Shown here: positions 3,941 to 60,340 of the stretch, piece after piece
Position numbering within the stretch: position 1 is the stretch's first letter
Layout: each line of letters begins with the position of its first letter
Origin: Methanotrichaceae archaeon
GTDB lineage: Archaea > Halobacteriota > Methanosarcinia > Methanotrichales > Methanotrichaceae
DNA length: 64,000 bases
Direction of reading: 5' to 3'
Assembly: GCA_963803145.1 (NCBI GenBank)
Contig: CAWDLW010000023.1
Location: forward strand, 32,001-96,000
Notes under the pieces: generated by a model
What the model was told of the DNA's origin: nothing
Seen by the model: the letters and a program-made list of their open reading frames with translations, nothing else
The model's database searches: none
Position numbers and translations under genes: made by a program

Positions 3941-5376
3941 GTATGTGTTTAGCTACACAATTTTAGCCTTAGCATCTGTAGACTATCGAGTCCCTGTTGT
4001 GACCATGTTGCGATCACAGTCATGAGCCTTTCATGAATAGTCGTTCCTTTGCTATTGCGCAAAGTTCCTATGATCTTCCTCTGTACAACATGTTCACGGA
4101 GCGCTCTTTCAGCTCTGTTATTGGTTGGCTCTACACCTGGCTGAATGATAAAAGTGAACCAGTACTCAAAGCCATTGCTAATTTTGCCAATAAGCTTTCT
4201 GACTTTCTCGCTGGCATATTTGCCATTAACCAGCTGCTTGAGCGTAGCTCTTGCCAGATACCATAGCACTCTTCGGACTTCTGGCGGAGGATCGTTCTTT
4301 AGAGCATCGATTAGTAGATCATAGATCTTTCTGAGTGCTCCATGTAATGGAACCGCCTCCGGAATCTTCTCTGCTAGATCTTTTGATTCTCGAAGTAAGT
4401 GAGCCCAGCATCTCTGTAAGTGCTTTGAGAAACGTACATAAGGTTTCCAACCATCACAAACGATGGTTCCCTTGAACTTTCTCGTCAAAACCTCTACCAG
4501 GACCTTCATGCCCCGGCTCTTGCGAATCACGACAAAAGTTTCAGCCAGAGTTGCAAATACCCATAGCCAGTGAGTCTTACCCTGAACATCAATTGATGTC
4601 TCATCTACGTAAAGAACCTGTGCAGCTCGAATTCTTTCCAAAATAGTATTGTATTCCAGTGCAACGGCATCTGCAGCACGGCGAGTTAAGTCAAGTATCG
4701 TTGCAGGGCTTATATCCAGACCATACAGTCGCTTCAGTGCATCTCTGATTTTCCTATGAGGCAACCTGTCCTTGTATTTCAGTAACGTCGCCTGTGCAAT
4801 TGTATTGTTACCGAACATGCCTTCGCTTGGGCAACCAGAATCGGTTCCAACAACCTCTTTCAGGCAGTGAGGGCATATGTAATGGCAGATTTTGTACTCG
4901 GTAACTGTAACTGGTTGTGGTTCGGGAATTTCCTCGATAATCTTCGATTCTATTCTGAACGGATCACCAAGCTTCATACCGCAATCAGGACATCGATCTC
5001 TTGTGACTTGCACTTGCTTGTCAGGCTTGGCTATTGGCCTTGTCAGACCCTTATGTCCTTTCTTCTGACCAGGCTTTCCCGTTTCATTCTGATCATTTCT
5101 TCGATTGCCGCCACGTCTCAGACTCGGCGGAGTATGAGCATTCTCATACTTAGCCAATCGGGCTTCTAGATCAGCTAATCGAGCTTCAAGTTCCTCTATG
5201 CGCCTTTTGAGAAATTCATTCTCGCGTCTTAATAGGTCATTTGGCTCTTGGGGTTGCCTGATGATCTCGTCTTTATCCATATGCCAGCTAGCAGAATATT
5301 ATAGGCATATTATATAAGGTCATGGCTAAAAGGGTCTAAATCCATAAGGATGATACTATAGGGGCTAAACACATAC
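3941..5376 (-). mobile_element. IS66-family insertion sequence (single ORF, ISBst12-like)
   Basis: 13-bp terminal IR GTATGTGTTTAGC / GCTAAACACATAC; 8-bp TSD CGAGAAAG at 3933-3940 and 5377-5384. Confidence 0.95.
3949..5280 (-). CDS. IS66 transposase
   Basis: Coiled coil, CPDCG/CPHC zinc finger, VDET, CDG, QRCWAHLLR, PTNNRAERALR. Confidence 0.95.
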   Translation of the reverse strand: MDKDEIIRQPQEPNDLLRRENEFLKRRIEELEARLADLEARLAKYENAHTPPSLRRGGNRRNDQNETGKPGQKKGHKGLTRPIAKPDKQVQVTRDRCPDCGMKLGDPFRIESKIIEEIPEPQPVTVTEYKICHYICPHCLKEVVGTDSGCPSEGMFGNNTIAQATLLKYKDRLPHRKIRDALKRLYGLDISPATILDLTRRAADAVALEYNTILERIRAAQVLYVDETSIDVQGKTHWLWVFATLAETFVVIRKSRGMKVLVEVLTRKFKGTIVCDGWKPYVRFSKHLQRCWAHLLRESKDLAEKIPEAVPLHGALRKIYDLLIDALKNDPPPEVRRVLWYLARATLKQLVNGKYASEKVRKLIGKISNGFEYWFTFIIQPGVEPTNNRAERALREHVVQRKIIGTLRNSKGTTIHERLMTVIATWSQQGLDSLQMLRLKLCS

Positions 5377-6314
5377 CGAGAAAGGAAAATTATTATTTAC
5401 TCTCCAAGGTCATCACGATACAATTTCAGATATTTCCTGGTCGTCAGACAGTAGGCGACTCGTTTCAGCATCAAAAGATGGCAAGATGATAATCTGGAAT
5501 ACAGAGACGGACGTGATTGAACTTCAGCGCGATGAGCCCGCTCCCGTAGACAGCATTGCCTGGAATCCAGTAAGGAATGAGATTATAGCATATTCTTCTG
5601 GAAAGCAACTGAAGCGTTGGGTTCTTTCCAAAAAGGACTTTACGAAAGAGAGTCTTCATGATTCCACCTCTTCCTTGCAATTGATTGAAAATCATTCGGA
5701 TACCATTTATTGCGTGAGATGGTCTCCAAGCGGTCAGATTCTTGTATCTTCTTCAGGTAACCACGCGATCAGCATATGGGATATGAGTAATGAAGTCTCC
5801 AACGGTCGCTATAGATTTTCTAGGATTGAAAAGGCCCATTCAGATAGTATTTATGGAATTTCGTGGTCTCCTGCTGGGGAGATCTTCGCCTCGGGATCGA
5901 ATGATGGGACCATAAGGATCTGGGGCAAAGATGAAACTTTGCAGAGGGAATTGGAAAAATGCCCCGAAGGTATCTGTGACTTGGCTTTTTCATTTCAAGG
6001 CAGATTTCTGGCCTCAAAATCTGTTAACGGAACTGTGCGTATCTGGGATTCCAAAGGATGGATATTAATCGCCGAGCTTAAGGTGAAATCTTCTGTACAT
6101 TTCAATTGGGGTTTGGCCTTTCACCCATCTAAGCTATTTTTAGCCACCTTAGACGGAACAGATGAGAAAATTCGAGTATGGAACCTAGATTCCGCTGCCC
6201 TAGAACTATTTCATCTTCTTAATATTAATCCGAAAGCCATTGACGATGTATATTCCGAAGTTGACTCATTGGGTTTTGCTGATTACCGAGATGCTTTCGT
6301 GGATCTATTTGTAA

Positions 6315-45591: not shown

Positions 45592-45939
45592 TCAGATCTT
45601 CATCCTCTTGAACTCTTCGAGCTCCTCAGGAGTAAAGAACTCCCGCCATTCTTTCGGTATCACTAAAAGCACCGAGCGACCGCCTCGCACGGCTCTTTCT
45701 GTCTTTACAAGGCCCTTATTCACAAGCCTCATCACGGCGCCATGGACTTTCCCAGGGGTCCAGTCCATAATTTTCGATAGCTCATAAACACTTAGGCCCG
45801 GAGTATCGTCCACTTTTTCGTATAATTCCCAGTCAGATTCTCCGCTTAGTTCGCGCCGCCTATGGGTTGCTCTGGTCGTGACGGATGCCATACCAATAAT
45901 TGGAGGTCGATCCTTTATAAACGTTTTGGTATATTCCAT
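45592..45939 (-). CDS. Winged-helix (MarR-like) protein
   Basis: PGLSVYELSK.MDWTPGKVHGAVMRLVNKGLV; true start may be downstream. Confidence 0.7.
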   Translation of the reverse strand: MEYTKTFIKDRPPIIGMASVTTRATHRRRELSGESDWELYEKVDDTPGLSVYELSKIMDWTPGKVHGAVMRLVNKGLVKTERAVRGGRSVLLVIPKEWREFFTPEELEEFKRMKI

Positions 45940-49260: not shown

Positions 49261-49909
49261 AGCGAAGGACTGCAAGAAATCGTGCACAGATTGAGGCTTG
49301 GATAAGACAGATTCATGATTTGGCCGATAAAGCTTCGCGTGAAATGGAAAATGTGCTTGGCGCAGATTCACCAGCATCGGCCACTATTGGCAATATTATG
49401 TGTAATGCTGATGATGGACTGGCCGAGCTCAGAGATGAATGGAAATGATACTTTCGCTTTGCTCTCGGCAAAAATTCAAAGAATAGGAAGCCAACTTTCG
49501 CGAAGAATGAGATACATATCCCTGAGGGAGGCCAGAGAGAGGCGAGCCAAAGGTATAATCGACCCTGCAGAGGATAGATGCATGGAATGCCATAGCGTTC
49601 TAACTCCGATATTCAGGGGCGGTGCATTGATATTCAGGTGCAAAAAATGCGAAAACAAGAGGCGAAGAAAAAATTGAGATTACATTCGCGGCACGATACC
49701 AGAAATAATATAAGTAAGAACTTAGAATCAGAGCTTAAAGAAACTGAGCGCTGAAAGAGCGCCCAAGCTAAGAGTATGGGCCGGACAAAACCCTTCGGTC
49801 GCCAAACTTTCGGGTTTTGTCACAGCAAATACTAGTATAGGACTAGCCCTGATATATAACAGTAGCCCCCTAAACACTAGTATGCTGTTTGGCCAACTCT
49901 TGAAAGGGG

Positions 49910-50152
49910 TTGGCAAAGATGAGTAAAAACCTTGACCATGAGATACTGAAGTTGGTCGCGAAAGAACCTGGAATTTCAAAATCCAGTGTCATAAAACGAC
50001 TAAAAAATATTGCAAGCAGAGACACTATAATTAAGCATATATATAAATTGTGTGCTGAAAATTATATAAAGCTGAACCTGGACACTGTTCTCGAACCGCT
50101 TAAGAAGTGCAAGGAAGCGGTCAAGGGCTTTGGAGAGGATGAAAATGAATAG
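49910..50152 (+). CDS. Winged-helix protein
   Basis: EILKLV..EPGISKS ... SR.TI.KHI..L...NYI. Confidence 0.7.
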   Translation: MAKMSKNLDHEILKLVAKEPGISKSSVIKRLKNIASRDTIIKHIYKLCAENYIKLNLDTVLEPLKKCKEAVKGFGEDENE

Positions 50153-50196
50153 TCCTCTCTCCGTAAGTCTTCAGCCTTCTAATTATCAACATGTGG

Positions 50197-50497
50197 GCCA
50201 CTGTGAATTAAAACTCATCCCTCCTTGTGATGGTGTCGCAGTGGCGCCAACCCCAATCACCGTGGGTCGGGTCTGTTCTTGGCTTCATCTGCATCTGATC
50301 ACCTCCCCGACCCTCTCCATTATCAATGTGCTCCGCCGCATCTCGTTTATTACCCCCTCATGCTACTCCTTGAATGTGGCGGGGCAATCCCTATCAGTGC
50401 CCCAGCTAATCGCAAAGCTAATCCTAATGACAGGCTGGGGCTCCCTCCATGATGATAAGCCCGCCAGTTCCTTAACCTCCTTTTCATCGGGCGGGCT
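50197..50497 (+). ncRNA. Putative array of five tandem stem-loop small RNAs with anti-RBS loops
   Basis: Five 8-12 bp GC stems starting at 50197, 50264, 50330, 50399 and 50458; G-U pairs favour the + strand; see findings. Confidence 0.6.
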
Positions 50498-50561
50498 CCT
50501 AACTATTGCGAGGCTCATCATTCTGGCAGCCTGCATATTCTATGTCCTGAAGGCGATCTGA

Positions 50562-51101
50562 ATGTTCGACATCAGAAAAGCCCATGTGCTTATGGATCAT
50601 TTCTTCGATGATGAGTACAAAGTAACATCTTCACCAATCATAAGAGAGCTTCATAGGACATTATCGGGATCTCTCGAACAGATCTCAGAACTCGAAGACC
50701 AGAATAAGATCCTCTGGGAAAATATCCAGGAAGGATCCATACTACTGAATCTCGGGGCCAGTATAATACAGAATCTCACACAATTGAGGATCAGGGACAT
50801 CAAGAAAATAAAAGCTCTGAGAGAGGAGATTTCCGATTCAGAAAAAAGAAATGCGGACCTGCAAAAATGCATAGAAAAGGATGCAGAGGGCGTATTCTCT
50901 GGAAAAGTCCAGCAGCTTGAAAATGCTCTGATAAAAGAGCGGGCCAATAGAATAATATCCCGCCAGAAGGTTTTCCAGAATTGTAAACACTATTGTCCAG
51001 TCTGCAATAATATCAGAATATGTGTATTGAAAGACTGCCCTGCTAAAGACTTCTTCATAGATGAGGCAAGAAAGGAGCTCGACGCAGAGGGGGCGGTCTG
51101 A
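50562..51101 (+). CDS. Viral coiled-coil protein with Cys cluster
   Basis: Heptad pattern, CKHYCPVC..C..C; TGA-ATG coupling on both sides. Confidence 0.65.
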   Translation: MFDIRKAHVLMDHFFDDEYKVTSSPIIRELHRTLSGSLEQISELEDQNKILWENIQEGSILLNLGASIIQNLTQLRIRDIKKIKALREEISDSEKRNADLQKCIEKDAEGVFSGKVQQLENALIKERANRIISRQKVFQNCKHYCPVCNNIRICVLKDCPAKDFFIDEARKELDAEGAV

Positions 51102-52085
51102 ATGGCCGAACAGAATCGTAAGTACGAGCTTCTCGTCGATGAATCGATCGAGGTCCTCGGGACAAAGCTCTTCCGAATCCGAGCTTTGTGCTCTTTTGGA
51201 GTCGTGGAGGTAGGACAGAAAGGCGGCTTCATTCAGTCTGAAAAGAATCTTTCTCCTGAAAGGAATGCCTGGGTCTTTGGGAATGCCTGGGTCTTTGGGA
51301 ATGCCTGGGTCTTTGGGGATGCCGAGGTCTCTGGGGATGCCAGGGTCTCTGGGGATGCCAGGGTCTCTGGGGATGCCAGGGTCTTTGGGAATGCCTGGGT
51401 CTTTGGGAATGCCAGGGTCTCTGGGGATGCCAGGGTCTTTGGGAATGCCTGGGTCTTTGGGGATGCCGAGGTCTCTGGGGATGCCGAGGTCTCTGGGGAT
51501 GCCAGGGTCTTTGGGGATGCCAGGGTCTTTGGGGATGCCGAGGTCTTTGGGAATGCCAGGGTCTTTGGGGATGCCGAGGTCTCTGGGGATGCCGAGGTCT
51601 CTGGGGATGCCAGGGTCTTTGGGAATGCCAGGGTCTTTGGGGATGCCGAGGTCTCTGGGGATGCCAGGGTCTTTGGGAATGCCAGGGTCTTTGGGGATGC
51701 CAGGGTCTTTGGGAATGCCAGGGTCTTTGGGGATGCCGAGGTCTTTGGGAATGCCAGGGTCTTTGGGAATGCCGAGGTCTCTGGGGATGCCGAGGTCTCT
51801 GGGGATGCCAGGGTCTTTGGGAATGCCAGGGTCTTTGGGGATGCCGAGGTCTCTGGGGATGCCAGGGTCCGACGACCGGCGGATCTGCTGGTCGTCGGTC
51901 CGATCGGCAGCAGAGATAGCTTCCTGACGATTATCGTCCCGACTGAAAAAGCTGTGACTGGATGCTTCAGTGGGACGATTGACGAGCTTGAAGCGGCTGC
52001 AAAAGAAAAGAAGCGGCAAGATTACCTTGACCTGTTGCTAGGGATCCGAGCGATCATAGCAAGACGAAAGGCGGAGGAGCAATAA
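51102..52085 (+). CDS. Phage-type left-handed beta-helix hexapeptide-repeat protein
   Basis: LFRIRAL..FG.V..G..GGFI.SEKNLS head, (N/D)A(W/R/E)V(F/S)G repeats, GCFSGT..E tail. Confidence 0.85.
   Translation: MAEQNRKYELLVDESIEVLGTKLFRIRALCSFGVVEVGQKGGFIQSEKNLSPERNAWVFGNAWVFGNAWVFGDAEVSGDARVSGDARVSGDARVFGNAWVFGNARVSGDARVFGNAWVFGDAEVSGDAEVSGDARVFGDARVFGDAEVFGNARVFGDAEVSGDAEVSGDARVFGNARVFGDAEVSGDARVFGNARVFGDARVFGNARVFGDAEVFGNARVFGNAEVSGDAEVSGDARVFGNARVFGDAEVSGDARVRRPADLLVVGPIGSRDSFLTIIVPTEKAVTGCFSGTIDELEAAAKEKKRQDYLDLLLGIRAIIARRKAEEQ
51264..51869 (+). repeat. 18-bp coding tandem repeat, ~34 units
   Basis: (A/G)ATGCC(TGG/AGG/GAG)GTCT(T/C)TGGG. Confidence 0.97.
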
Positions 52086-57146: not shown

Positions 57147-59119
57147 CTATCAGGCGAAATTATAGCCTTTCGCTGATAGTGATAAGGAATAGTGATAAGG
57201 AGGGTAAAATGGTCGAAGTCTCATGCATAATCGATGGGAAGGACAAATTCTACGGCCCATATATAAATAAGCAATTGATGCAAATGACGCTGAACATAAT
57301 AAAAAAGACAGGAGATGATTACGCCGAGCCTTTTTCATTCGATGCAGATCCCTGGGAAGAGAAGATTATGCGAGGTCTGCTGCCTTTTCGGGTTAGCGTA
57401 GAAATATTCAAGGGCCAACCCCAAAAGCCTGAGATCAGGTTGCAATGGCCGCCGCTCGATGAAGAAGGAATAATCAGCGAATCCGACTTCCTGATAGAAT
57501 ATTTCTTCTGGGCCCTGGGCCGGGACAATGTTTTACGCAGGCTCAGCTCGGTCAATCGCAATACAAATACAAGCACTCCAAAGGTGCATGCTCACGCCTG
57601 AATGGGCATATACATCGACGCAGGAACGGCAGTCTGAAATATCATCGAAAAAGGTCAAAGGGCTGCTGCAATACGATCCTAGAGATTACGATGGCTGTGG
57701 GGCTGAAGAAGAATGAGTGGGCACATTAGATGGCAGAAAAGCAAAACAGTGTTTGGGCTTTTTCACATCTCGATTTTGGCCCGATGTAAAGGCTATTTCC
57801 CAAGATACGAGTTGATGGTCTGGTGGTACTGATGGCCGATCTAGCGACTTTGCTATATCAAATTTTAGAGAATCAGATAGCAATTATGACTGTAATGAGG
57901 TTTCAATTAGCGCAGACTCATTCAGGATCAGATGACATAGTTGCCTTGGGGATACAGAGGCTAACGCGTGGAATCATGTATTCAGAAGAGAGGCTAAGAG
58001 GATGAAAAAAATCGATTGCGTCCGGTGTTCGCTGGCCGTGTGGCTGGCAAGATACGCTTCCAAGATTATGCAGGAGCAGGGTATAGATCAAAATCAATGG
58101 CTGAAATATGAGTTTGAGAAGCTTTAGGAGATAGAGAATATGCCGACTATAGACAAAATCGAGATGATCAAGCCTTCAAGGAGCTGATTTATGAGCCAGA
58201 AGGAGTTCGTGGACTTTCAAGTATTTCTGCTCATAAAAACTCACCCAGGTACATGCGAACGGGGACTCCTCAAGATAGCGCAGTTTGAGATGAAATGCAC
58301 CAAGTGGACCTACAATCTAATTCATCATTCCGTATCGAGGTGGATAAAGAAGGGCAAGGTCAGAACGAGGCTAGTGCTCTCCGAGGGCCATTCATGCAAG
58401 CGTCTGTATCTGAAATAATTTGCGATATCTCAGACAGCGGTTCTCCCTTTATTGAGGGAGAGAAATATTTCGAAGAGAGTAATCTTAGCCCAGATGATCA
58501 GAAGCTATTTGCAAAATACCTCAAGAAGTCTCCGAGGTTTCGCTATATATGGGTAGGCAAAATAGCTGACGTCCACATCAAAATTCAATCCCTCTTAGAA
58601 TACGATTCGAAAGGACGACTTCTGTATAGGGGCAATCCCTACAACAAGGACACCTGGACAGCGTTCTTTGTCGTGGATAACCTTCTTTGGGGGCCTCCTC
58701 CTGTCATAAGAGATCAAGGCCGATATGCAAAAGAGCAGTTTGATCCTAGGAACGATTATCCCACTGAAGTTGTAGAGGATAATCACGGGAACAAGCTTAG
58801 GGTATTGAGATATTGCGATGGTTGTGGCGGGGATCTGGAGTACGATCATAGGATGGTACTATACTGCAAAAAATGTTTTTTGGAGTTTAAATGAAATATG
58901 TTAATAGAGTTGACCACGGCGGAAAAGCAAGGACTATAGCGGATCTCCACACTGCTAGATTGAGGGCTGATAACAGACAAATGTCTGAAATAGAATTCTT
59001 CAGAAAGTTTCATAGTCATCCATTGATGACATAGGGACATGTCTAGCCAGAACTGAAGCGGGCCGGAGCCAATGGCGATGATGGCTCATCCCTCCTTTTG
59101 ATAATATGGATACAGTCAC

Positions 59120-60340
59120 ATGTCCGAGCGTACTTTAGCCGAGTTTAATAAAATCCTTCTAGAAAACTTCGGCTTCGAGATAGATATTTGGCCTATAGAG
59201 AAGTTCAAGGGCTATGCCAGGAATGTCAAAAAGCATAGAAGCAAAGATATAGATACAATGGTCAAAGCCTTTGAGGAAACGAACTTCAAGGACTTTATAA
59301 AATATGATCCTATAAGCGATTCCATAGCAGACGGTCACAGAAGAGTTGCAGCAGCAATAAAATGGGGTAAAAAAGAATTACCTGTTTTAATTCCTAGAGA
59401 CCTTACACCAGAGAAGATGAAGCTCCTACGGCTAGAATATAATCGTCTGCCTGAGCAATCAAGCTATGATAAACGAAATTTAGTCAATGAGCTTGCAGAT
59501 CTGACGCGCTCTAATATCGATTATAATTTTCTCGATTATAATAAATACGATCCGTTAGTAGAGGCCAATCTGAGCAATAATGCTGAGCAGGCATTCGAGT
59601 ATCCTGGAGATTCTGCTTTAGGCTCCCTGACTTTTGACCGGCCACTGCATGAGCCGTTACAGGAAGCAGAGCCCAATCAATTTACCCCAAAACCATCCAT
59701 CCTGCAAGCAAAGAAACAAAAAGAGGACCTCCATGGAATGGGATTGGCCGATATGATATTTCCTTCCGATCCTATTGAAGGAATACCAATCCTGAGCCTT
59801 GAATATATGCCCAAGACGGTCAAAACACCTTTTATCAAACACGGCGAGGTCTCGAATAAGCGTAATCTTGGGGGCGCAAAGCATTTCTATGCTTTTGATG
59901 GAAAATTGTATAATATTTGGCACAATCCTTTCCAACTTCTTGAAGGCAATACATCACAATTTGTCGAAGTAAACTTCAGTATACGCAATACTCATGGCAG
60001 GGCCTATGCACTCGGACAGATTTTCAGGAAACGCCAGATAGCGGCGTGGCTGCAGACAAAAGACAAAGAAATCTTCGTCGATATGAATGTAGGCGGCAAA
60101 TGGCGAAAAGAAAATTTGATAAGCGTGCCCGAAGGATATACTGCCTATTGTACTAGAGGCTACACATCAAAAGCCATGTATATCGCTGAGCAAATCGATT
60201 TGGCAACTGAACGGGCAGGTACTAATAATATATTATTCGTCGTATATGGTGGAGGGGAAGTGATAGAAGACTGCTGCAAAGAAGCAGGATGTCTATACTT
60301 CCCTGAAGTCATGGATGTTCAGAAAGGTAAAGGGGTGTAG
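59120..60340 (+). CDS. ParB/Srx-like N-terminal domain fused to a DUF4417-like domain
   Basis: Y.RN.K.H, IADGHRRV.AA; C-terminal HFY..D....IW..P, NFS, R.R..A..Q, VYGG. Confidence 0.7.
   Translation: MSERTLAEFNKILLENFGFEIDIWPIEKFKGYARNVKKHRSKDIDTMVKAFEETNFKDFIKYDPISDSIADGHRRVAAAIKWGKKELPVLIPRDLTPEKMKLLRLEYNRLPEQSSYDKRNLVNELADLTRSNIDYNFLDYNKYDPLVEANLSNNAEQAFEYPGDSALGSLTFDRPLHEPLQEAEPNQFTPKPSILQAKKQKEDLHGMGLADMIFPSDPIEGIPILSLEYMPKTVKTPFIKHGEVSNKRNLGGAKHFYAFDGKLYNIWHNPFQLLEGNTSQFVEVNFSIRNTHGRAYALGQIFRKRQIAAWLQTKDKEIFVDMNVGGKWRKENLISVPEGYTAYCTRGYTSKAMYIAEQIDLATERAGTNNILFVVYGGGEVIEDCCKEAGCLYFPEVMDVQKGKGV

Follow-up and report, generated by a model that had tools for sequence, protein, structure and literature searches.

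A five-hairpin array in an archaeal provirus carries loops that match host CRISPR repeats and conserved host RNA elements: a possible multi-loop decoy and antisense RNA

Introduction

RNA anti-CRISPRs (Racrs) are phage RNAs that mimic the repeats in clustered regularly interspaced short palindromic repeat (CRISPR) systems, bind Cas6 and block immunity (PMC10651486). Those so far known are solitary repeat mimics from bacterial phages and plasmids. The survey in that study detected solitary repeat units in archaeal viruses as well; its search tool, SRUFinder, asks for at least 90% identity to a known repeat and separates full matches (at least 90% coverage) from partial ones (50-90%) (PMC10651486). 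Here, we describe an array of five tandem stem-loops, A to E, which occupies 50197-50497 of a 64,000-nt stretch of DNA from a Methanotrichaceae archaeon (contig CAWDLW010000023.1, positions 32,001 to 96,000; hereafter the window, to which all coordinates without a contig label refer) and lies between two genes of a tailed provirus. Each loop holds a segment of 19-28 nt that matches a host sequence, in sense or antisense, and two of these matches are to the host's own CRISPR repeat, R1. Throughout, the host is the 4.13-Mb archaeal genome that carries the window contig, and C labels denote its contigs.

The array resembles Racrs in several respects. It is a viral, apparently non-coding sequence that resembles the CRISPR repeat of its own host, the host encodes the matching system (type I-A cas genes together with the R1 array), Cas6 and the biogenesis of CRISPR RNA (crRNA) are what it would target, and a small helix-turn-helix gene adjoins it. 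Many anti-CRISPR loci adjoin such a gene. It also differs from them: loop D agrees with the repeat at 19 of 22 positions (86%) over 22 of its 37 nt (59%), which falls under 90% and places the array outside the Racr family as defined; loop E covers 19 repeat positions, in antisense and with an 8-nt insert; the repeat copy lies in the loop of an unrelated 8-bp hairpin instead of adopting the repeat's own fold; and the CRISPR-related loops make up only two of the five modules. Moreover, loop E is antisense to both the repeat and the cas6 start, whereas the word 'antisense' does not occur in the main text of the Racr study (PMC10651486). By analogy, the array would work most like a Racr combined with an RNA directed against ribosome-binding sites or small RNAs (sRNAs).

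In Methanosarcina mazei, loop 2 of sRNA154 and sRNA41 are described as masking ribosome-binding sites (PMC5867862, PMC11456600), and in sRNA162 the masking is attributed to a single-stranded linker region (PMC3510493). The array has in common with these RNAs, as those papers describe them, stable stem-loops that expose pyrimidine-rich single strands resembling anti-ribosome-binding sites, and a host hairpin RNA with a loop of this kind is copied in viral loop C. To judge from family-level searches and a Methanosarcina acetivorans control, the host would also fall in the archaeal family of M. mazei. The array differs in being encoded by a provirus and not by the chromosome, in its five tandem modules, and in that no mRNA target above background was found for loops A-D.

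Several bacterial RNAs offer further comparisons. AgvB and AsxR, the prophage anti-sRNAs or sponges of enterohaemorrhagic E. coli, are Hfq-dependent and single-site. Like them, the array would be a prophage RNA that pairs with, or imitates the target of, a conserved host RNA, as predicted for loop A and the host element that it matches; in contrast to them, it is archaeal and has several modules, and the strand of the loop A partner is putative. CsrB and RsmZ are protein sponges that repeat one short motif, and RNAIII of Staphylococcus aureus has C-rich loops that pair with Shine-Dalgarno (SD) regions. With all three the array shares serial stem-loops in which the loops would be the exposed active parts, and its loops A, B and E could pair with SD sequences through CCUCC as those of RNAIII do. 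Unlike CsrB and RsmZ, it has loops that are all unlike one another, each from a different host RNA. Among the titles listed in our literature searches, we found none on an antisense route against cas6 or CRISPR repeats, or on multiplex hairpin display by an archaeal virus.

Structure of the array

A first-pass annotation of the window had placed five hairpins at this site, and all of them were recovered, with the arms it gave, by inspection of the sequence and by repeat search (Table 1). The linkers between them are 18, 16, 13 and 16 nt long, and the start-to-start spacings are 67, 66, 69 and 59 nt. An inverted-repeat search lists A, B, D and E and misses C, with its two G·U pairs; a hairpin detector recovers C. 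Upon folding 50150-50520, a check that the annotation had suggested, the minimum free energy (MFE) structure of the + strand contained all five hairpins at -115.7 kcal/mol, compared with -94.7 ± 5.2 kcal/mol for shuffled sequences (z = -4.02; none of 100 shuffles was as good). The - strand gave z = -0.89, with 18 of 100 shuffles as good. This asymmetry in fold stability comes from three G·U pairs that are valid on the + strand only, two of them in stem C and the third in stem A. The + strand orientation previously proposed from these pairs is supported both by them and by the fold scores. Stem pairing probabilities are at least 0.98, and the mean unpaired probabilities of the host-matched loop segments range from 0.46 to 0.89.

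Table 1 Features of the array, its surroundings and its host counterparts (window positions unless a contig is named)
Feature	Position	Strand	Description
Hairpin A	50197-50245	+	stem GCCACTGTGA/TCGCAGTGGC, 10 bp with 1 G·U; loop 29 nt
Hairpin B	50264-50313	+	stem GGGTCGGG/CCCGACCC, 8 bp; loop 34 nt
Hairpin C	50330-50385	+	stem GCTCCGCCGCAT/ATGTGGCGGGGC, 12 bp with 2 G·U; loop 32 nt
Hairpin D	50399-50441	+	stem GCCCCAGC/GCTGGGGC, 8 bp; loop 27 nt
Hairpin E	50458-50497	+	stem AGCCCGCC/GGCGGGCT, 8 bp; loop 24 nt
Possible outer helix around hairpin E	50439-50531	+	arms 50439-50455 / 50515-50531, 17 nt, 76% complementary; present in MFE structure
Open frame, 138 codons	50145-50561	+	spans the array; called as a protein in the protein collection
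Candidate early-operon promoter region	49827-49883	+	TATA-like GATATATAA at 49851-49859
Small winged-helix gene	49910-50152	+	80 aa from TTG 49910; ATG 49919; directly 5' of the array
Next early gene, orphan ORF179	50562-51101	+	179 aa, coiled-coil-like, CxxC...C motif
Host hairpin RNA	C25:71533-71640	-	~108 nt, two hairpins; outside the window (wider span C25:71525-71645 = L104:1527-1647)
Host element 2	C12:~220740-220830 (L153:441-531)		intergenic; outside the window
Split cas3' and cas7 genes	C12:127511-128739 and 131765-132605 (L100:512-1740 and 4766-5606)		two overlapping open reading frames each

The array is unique in the host genome. We scanned for hairpins with 8-bp stems (at least 5 G-C pairs, at most 1 G·U) and loops of 16-40 nt, joined into arrays at spacings of 45-85 nt. 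Over 8,265,690 nt, counting both strands, the scan returned 2479 hairpins and 50 arrays of two, no array of three or four, and a single array of five, which is the one at 50197-50497. In 1.48 Mb (both strands) of other loci, the same scan returned 21 arrays of two and 2 of three.

The stems are rich in G+C, and, by eye, a GCC...GGC (or GCU...GGC) stem base recurs in four of the five units. The linkers are short and pyrimidine-rich, and the shared linker motif described in the annotation holds in the form ATCA...GTG ahead of four units (again by eye). Stem positions 4, 6, 7 and 8 from the base vary among the units. Because these upper positions differ yet always pair, the units look like paralogues under selection for the helix; MAFFT gave no in-register alignment of the five. 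The array is not a CRISPR array, since no direct-repeat family runs across it, the sole direct repeat being an 8-nt pair inside loop D. The pentamer CCTCC is found in three loops (A, B and E) and once more between hairpins D and E, in their linker.

Searches for known RNA families were negative. The window gave no Rfam match at gathering thresholds, and 49600-50700, searched at E-value thresholds, gave best E values of 1.5-9 with scores far below gathering; a tRNA/tmRNA scan found none. We also considered a C/D-box reading of the ATGATGA motif and rejected it, as the spacing does not fit by eye and the Rfam family sR23 scores 13.5 bits against a gathering threshold of 45.

Host sequences in the loops

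Short-word BLAST of the gap that holds the array against the host genome led to the loop matches, and the match scores were compared with those of dinucleotide-shuffled versions of 50153-50561. Every one of the five matched segments falls within a loop.

Two loops relate to the type I-A CRISPR system. On contig C12, the host has an array of 18 copies of the 37-nt repeat R1 with adjoining type I-A genes for Cas3', Cas3'', Cas8a, Cas7 and Cas5a, and for Cas6 on the opposite strand. This Cas6 (324 aa, minus strand) is recognized by the PADLOC Cas6 model (E 1.2e-68) and by Pfam CRISPR_Cas6. The start region of its gene is an exact 24-nt copy of R1 nt 13-36 with the ATG inside (C12:136187-136210; L100:9188-9211), which could permit Cas6 to bind its own mRNA in an autoregulatory manner or could be the remnant of a terminal repeat. 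The loop D segment 50409-50430 matches R1 nt 1-22 in the same sense, with the first 11 nt exact (score 29, a value that none of 3000 and none of 2000 shuffles attained). Loop E is antisense to the repeat in two blocks that an 8-nt insert separates: 50479-50491 reads exactly as the reverse complement of R1 nt 15-27, and 50466-50471 as that of R1 nt 28-33 (score 26; 1 of 3000 and 2 of 2000 shuffles). As the cas6 start copies R1 nt 13-36, loop E is also antisense, over 13 + 6 nt, to the start-codon region of the type I-A cas6. The repeat 5' region is reportedly a high-affinity site for some Cas6 enzymes, according to work on Pyrococcus and Methanococcus, and the cleavage by Cas6, which we presume to occur 8 nt from the end of the R1 repeat, would fall within the region complementary to loop E.

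Loop C matches the loop of a host hairpin RNA on contig C25: its segment 50344-50369 aligns with that loop in the same sense and agrees at 26 of 28 columns, with two 1-nt gaps (score 42; 0 of 2000 shuffles). The second hairpin of the host RNA shares the architecture of viral hairpin C, in that a stem of 13 bp carries a loop of ~30 nt, but its stem sequence is different. The loop A segment 50214-50232 is identical at 18 of 19 positions to the + strand of a second host element, element 2 on contig C12 (score 33; 0 of 2000 shuffles), and bears the 'TT' variant of this element; four of the 28 unique host copies, the host's own among them, show this variant. Finally, the loop B segment 50287-50306 agrees in the same sense with 18 of 21 columns of the host 16S rRNA 3' end, namely the last 21 nt before the final base, and includes GATCACCTCC, the anti-Shine-Dalgarno end (score 25; 4 of 3000 and 2 of 2000 shuffles). 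The 16S match is the weakest of the five because its reference was picked after CCTCC had been noticed. Three of the references in the opposite orientation were unremarkable, with 1903, 892 and 602 of 2000 shuffles reaching their scores.

What raises these matches above chance is their pattern. The two matches to one CRISPR repeat occupy the adjacent loops D and E, two others hit the most conserved single-stranded parts of conserved host RNAs, and all five fall in loops. They are also clustered: in 62 kb around the provirus, four of the six BLAST matches of the references (E <= 0.5) lie inside the 301-nt array.

The annotation had read the loops as antisense to translation start sites, and as a general claim this did not hold. 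It survives for loop E and the cas6 start, described above. For loop A, the predicted duplex with the minus-strand RNA of element 2 reaches -33.7 kcal/mol, beyond all 3620 host control sites with an SD sequence and an ATG (minimum -29.0 kcal/mol); the loop is complementary to the GGAGG-rich end of this conserved host element, provided that element 2 is transcribed from the minus strand. Loops B, C and D copy host RNAs in the same sense, and no mRNA to which they would be antisense was identified. Among the 3620 sites themselves, no target stands out for four of the loops (A, B, D and E). Loop C has one outlier, at C25:71567 (-42.5 kcal/mol against a mean of -15.2 ± 4.1), which we ruled out as an mRNA target: its frame reads as non-coding, and the site is the opposite strand of the conserved two-hairpin RNA. 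Two further candidates were set aside. Recurrent matches of the 3' half of hairpin B in one genus are likely chance similarity to purine-rich coding DNA on the opposite strand, and we took as chance a match of loop E, exact over 16 nt, that falls within a coding region at C8:39584.

Conserved host RNAs matched by loops C and A

The host hairpin RNA is found in 104 of 105 family genomes. Its 30 loci comprise 29 unique copies, 27 of which are identical over 66 nt; of the other two, one has a single change that creates a G·U pair and one is cut at a contig end. The first hairpin covaries. An invariant G·U pair and the alifold values of the two strands (-25.0 vs -20.1) favour the sense of viral loop C. 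A gene for a DUF3147-like membrane protein starts ~10-45 nt 3' of the RNA in 17 of the 30 loci, and 13 have none. In the largest genus of the family (L185-L202), 7 of 18 loci were aligned, and all of these have a pyrimidine-rich locus of ~500 nt (for example L188:300-800) with several GTGCCATCCCTT-like motif copies and one copy of the host hairpin RNA loop; by BLAST, the core motif is in all 18. This locus may be a longer, multi-module relative of the host hairpin RNA.

Element 2 is present in 58 of the 105 family genomes and in 8 of 16 genera. It consists of a covarying G+C-rich hairpin beside CTCCTCCCTCC(T)TGTGATG, together with a conserved TATA-like box. The A·C/G·U pattern, the consensus fold (-25.0 vs -15.0) and the conserved TATA-like box favour the minus strand, transcription of which, as the sequence suggests, would yield an RNA beginning with a GGAGGGAGGAG tract. 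If element 2 is read in this way, loop A would be antisense to its GGAGGGAGGAG-rich 5' end. Neither the host hairpin RNA nor element 2 has an Rfam match, and a literature text search with 26 nt, aimed at naming the conserved host RNAs, gave no match.

Proposed function

We propose that the array is an early viral + strand RNA with multiple loops that acts in trans as a decoy and antisense molecule, and we give this reading a probability of about one half. Such an RNA would be multi-headed, showing several host-derived loops at once. Loop D would titrate Cas6 through the 5' recognition segment of the repeat, while loop E would anneal to the cas6 start codon and, in each R1 repeat, to the region around the cleavage site; with both at work, crRNA maturation would fall. 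The best-supported reading of the sequence is a + strand RNA with host-derived stretches exposed in accessible loops, among which D and E would form a coherent pair aimed at Cas6. The host's riboregulators, both the pyrimidine-rich (anti-SD-like) and the GGAGG-rich ones, would be mimicked or sequestered by loops A-C, or the viral copies could capture the partners of such regulators; translation control could thereby tilt toward the virus. Since no homologous arrays were found, we infer the mechanism, that is, the transcription of the array, its action in trans and each of its binding steps, from the host matches and the fold.

A more far-reaching form of this proposal is doubtful: that the array is a modular loop-cassette scaffold, in which one unit was duplicated five times and each loop was given a different piece of host RNA in either orientation, and that it would so represent a new class of viral counter-defence RNA. 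The same doubt applies to what this form adds, that one early transcript both disables Cas6-dependent crRNA maturation and rewires SD/anti-SD riboregulators; the transcript would then be a decoy for Cas6 and antisense both to the substrate of Cas6 and to its mRNA.

A number of observations weigh against a multi-loop decoy and antisense RNA. With orientations that are mixed (B, C and D in sense; E and probably A in antisense), no one mechanism fits every loop. Only 59% of R1 is represented in loop D, at 86% identity, the duplex of loop E with the cas6 start is predicted at -17.8 kcal/mol, which ranks 0.062 among the 3620 SD-containing starts, and no other outlier for any loop was seen among the cas starts of both CRISPR loci. 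The type I-A system may itself be decaying, because cas3' and cas7 (Csa2/DevR) both appear frameshifted into two overlapping open reading frames (ORFs); assembly errors are the alternative. As to the statistics, the shuffle counts are conditional, since the references were picked after the BLAST matches, and the genome-wide BLAST E values are modest (0.03 for loop C, 1.3 for loop A, 1.2 and 4.9 for R1). The CCTCC motif occurs four times against 1.6 expected, and 135 of 2000 shuffles reach four, within what the composition gives; as no loop motif rises above chance, the array is not a CsrB-type sponge. No homologous array was found in the genus, in the 105 family genomes or in viral and metagenome contigs, so there is no cross-species covariation to draw on. 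Lastly, a frame with initiation signals stays open over the whole gap and stops right at the next ATG.

If the proposal is true, archaeal viruses attack crRNA biogenesis with structured RNAs, several host-derived 'heads' can be borne on one viral RNA, and viruses exploit a little-known sRNA layer of methanogen regulation. Should the loops be exchangeable over evolution, the array would be a virus-side, RNA-level counterpart of a spacer array. Two strongly conserved host RNAs, both unnamed, came to light through the array, as did a cas6 start region that duplicates the CRISPR repeat of its own system.

Alternative explanations

The 138-codon frame that spans the array could instead be a genuine orphan gene, encoding a small protein that ends in a hydrophobic helix, in which case the hairpins and the matches to host sequences would be incidental to its coding sequence; we consider this unlikely. 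The frame has GGAGAGG 6 nt 5' of its ATG at 50145, its TGA abuts the ATG of the next gene, and its C-terminal 23 residues are hydrophobic. Its openness (135 codons within the 409-nt gap) is of marginal significance, being reached in 4.6% of 5000 dinucleotide shuffles on the + strand and 5.2% of 2000 shuffles on both strands, rates at which it can arise by chance given the C+T-rich composition. The codon score, however, is -0.003, compared with 0.085-0.225 for 12 of the 13 other scored ORFs (the thirteenth, the doubtful 49315-49677, is low too) and with a 1st percentile of 0.031 for 138-codon chunks of long host genes; two reverse frames outscore it. Its composition is reversed relative to the neighbouring genes (C+T rich, one Glu in 138 residues). 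Searches for relatives returned the frame alone from 5.8 billion protein clusters, itself and one weak repetitive match (E 1.5e-5) from 1.84 billion representatives, and its own locus plus one match at E = 0.009, which is not credible, from the 105 family genomes, and no Pfam, PHROG or PADLOC family matched. Because the flanking genes are orphans too, this lack of relatives is weak evidence against a gene. A single-sequence AlphaFold model (mean predicted local distance difference test score, pLDDT, 49.6) is uninformative either way. Coding would also give no reason for strand-specific hairpins whose loops copy host RNAs. Overall, the frame is probably not a genuine protein gene, and a structured RNA, which the annotation had preferred to a protein, fits the locus better.

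An RNA structure could also act in cis. The array fills the gap between two + strand genes, by eye the stretch ahead of the next gene lacks runs of five T or longer, which makes read-through likely, and no strong TATA box is seen directly 5' of hairpin A; together with the outer helix around hairpin E, these features suit a structured intercistronic spacer of the early mRNA that would act on stability, processing, pausing or flanking translation, with the host-like loop sequences serving as evolutionary raw material devoid of trans function. We hold this to be possible but doubtful, as it leaves unexplained why near-copies of host RNAs sit in the loops in five of five cases and never in stems or linkers, and why loop C retains 26 of 28 positions of the host loop on a wholly different stem. 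A DNA-level or non-functional origin, either a patchwork left by illegitimate recombination or an origin, recombination or protein-binding element, would accord with segments that trace to four separate host loci in both orientations, and with a position near the presumed lysogeny/early switch, where such elements are frequent. It is very unlikely in view of the G·U pairs and strand-specific fold energy, which indicate RNA; random capture would hardly set five pieces between unrelated perfect inverted repeats at a 59-69-nt period, and the region has neither iterons nor an A+T-rich unwinding stretch. Equally little credit goes to the original idea of a pure set of processed antisense or guide sRNAs, in which every member would silence one selected mRNA by way of its ribosome-binding site. 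This mode of action is reported for Methanosarcina sRNAs (PMC5867862), loop E is antisense to the cas6 start region, and the reverse complements of loops A, B and C hold a GGAG-type motif followed by an ATG. Such SD..ATG combinations, which had been taken as a sign of targeting, number six on the reverse complement against 2.44 expected, a count that 167 of 2000 shuffles reach and that the composition therefore accounts for. Four loops lack an outlying target, the outlier of loop C is the opposite strand of a non-coding RNA, and B, C and D are same-sense with host RNAs. The multi-loop decoy and antisense RNA remains our preferred reading.

The provirus and its early operon

The right part of the window is a tailed provirus with genes for the small and large terminase subunits, a ParB-like nuclease, a D12 methyltransferase, a DUF5131 protein and a YdcK-type beta-solenoid protein. 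The array belongs to an early rightward operon that runs from the TATA-like GATATATAA at 49851 through the winged-helix gene and the 409-nt gap to the orphan 179-aa gene. Direct repeats (AAATACTAGTAT / AAACACTAGTAT) lie around GATATATAA and an inverted repeat (ATACTAGT / ACTAGTAT) lies beside it; these small repeats are possible operator sites, and the region is a putative promoter on the basis of its sequence.

The winged-helix protein, a candidate regulator of the operon, has a weak Pfam HTH_24 match (E 0.002, under the curated cut-off). Its gene has a gene-like codon score of 0.218, and its sole other match in the 105 family genomes is a weak one in its own genome (E 0.008). Downstream, the ATG of ORF179 immediately follows the TGA of the 138-codon frame; its codon score is 0.140, and a protein-collection search returns ORF179 alone. 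Weak ORF179 matches in L013 and L014, of the same genus, run through two TAG codons each, which might reflect pyrrolysine read-through or a chance coiled-coil similarity.

Relatives were sought for four proteins, namely the 138-codon frame, ORF179, the winged-helix protein and a 108-aa downstream protein. None were found in viral contigs; in the genus only the window itself was recovered (one of three genomes), in the 105 family genomes the matches were weak or spurious, and the protein collections returned nothing but the proteins themselves. Neither viral nor metagenome contigs yielded a match to exact or degenerate loop C patterns. For the YdcK-like neighbour, 436 relatives were found among viruses, and no comparable array was found in their flanks. 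By the same hairpin criteria, runs of three hairpins occur in two unrelated YdcK-encoding viral contigs (L052:10443-10624 and L082:3416-3607, both on the - strand), the latter directly 3' of the YdcK-like gene.

Besides the type I-A system, contig C18 of the host bears another CRISPR locus, of type I-B, which is complete, encodes Cas6b and has a related repeat. Host spacers show no full match to the provirus and two partial ones, both from type I-B spacers. One agrees with 45903-45939 at 28 of 37 positions, 26 of them contiguous, and this site, to the left of the presumed provirus, is the start of a MarR-like gene; the other matches 60217-60253 at 23 of 37 positions, within the ParB-like nuclease gene.

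The YdcK-type gene (51102-52085) consists of many short near-identical repeats, which explains why long frames are also open within the YdcK region (50838-52085), at 51265-51927 (+) and 50838-52019 (-). A further copy of the loop A core, CTCATCCCTCCTT.TGAT, matching at 17 of 18 positions, lies at 59085-59102 in the same orientation; it is intergenic, directly 5' of the ParB-like nuclease gene of the same provirus.

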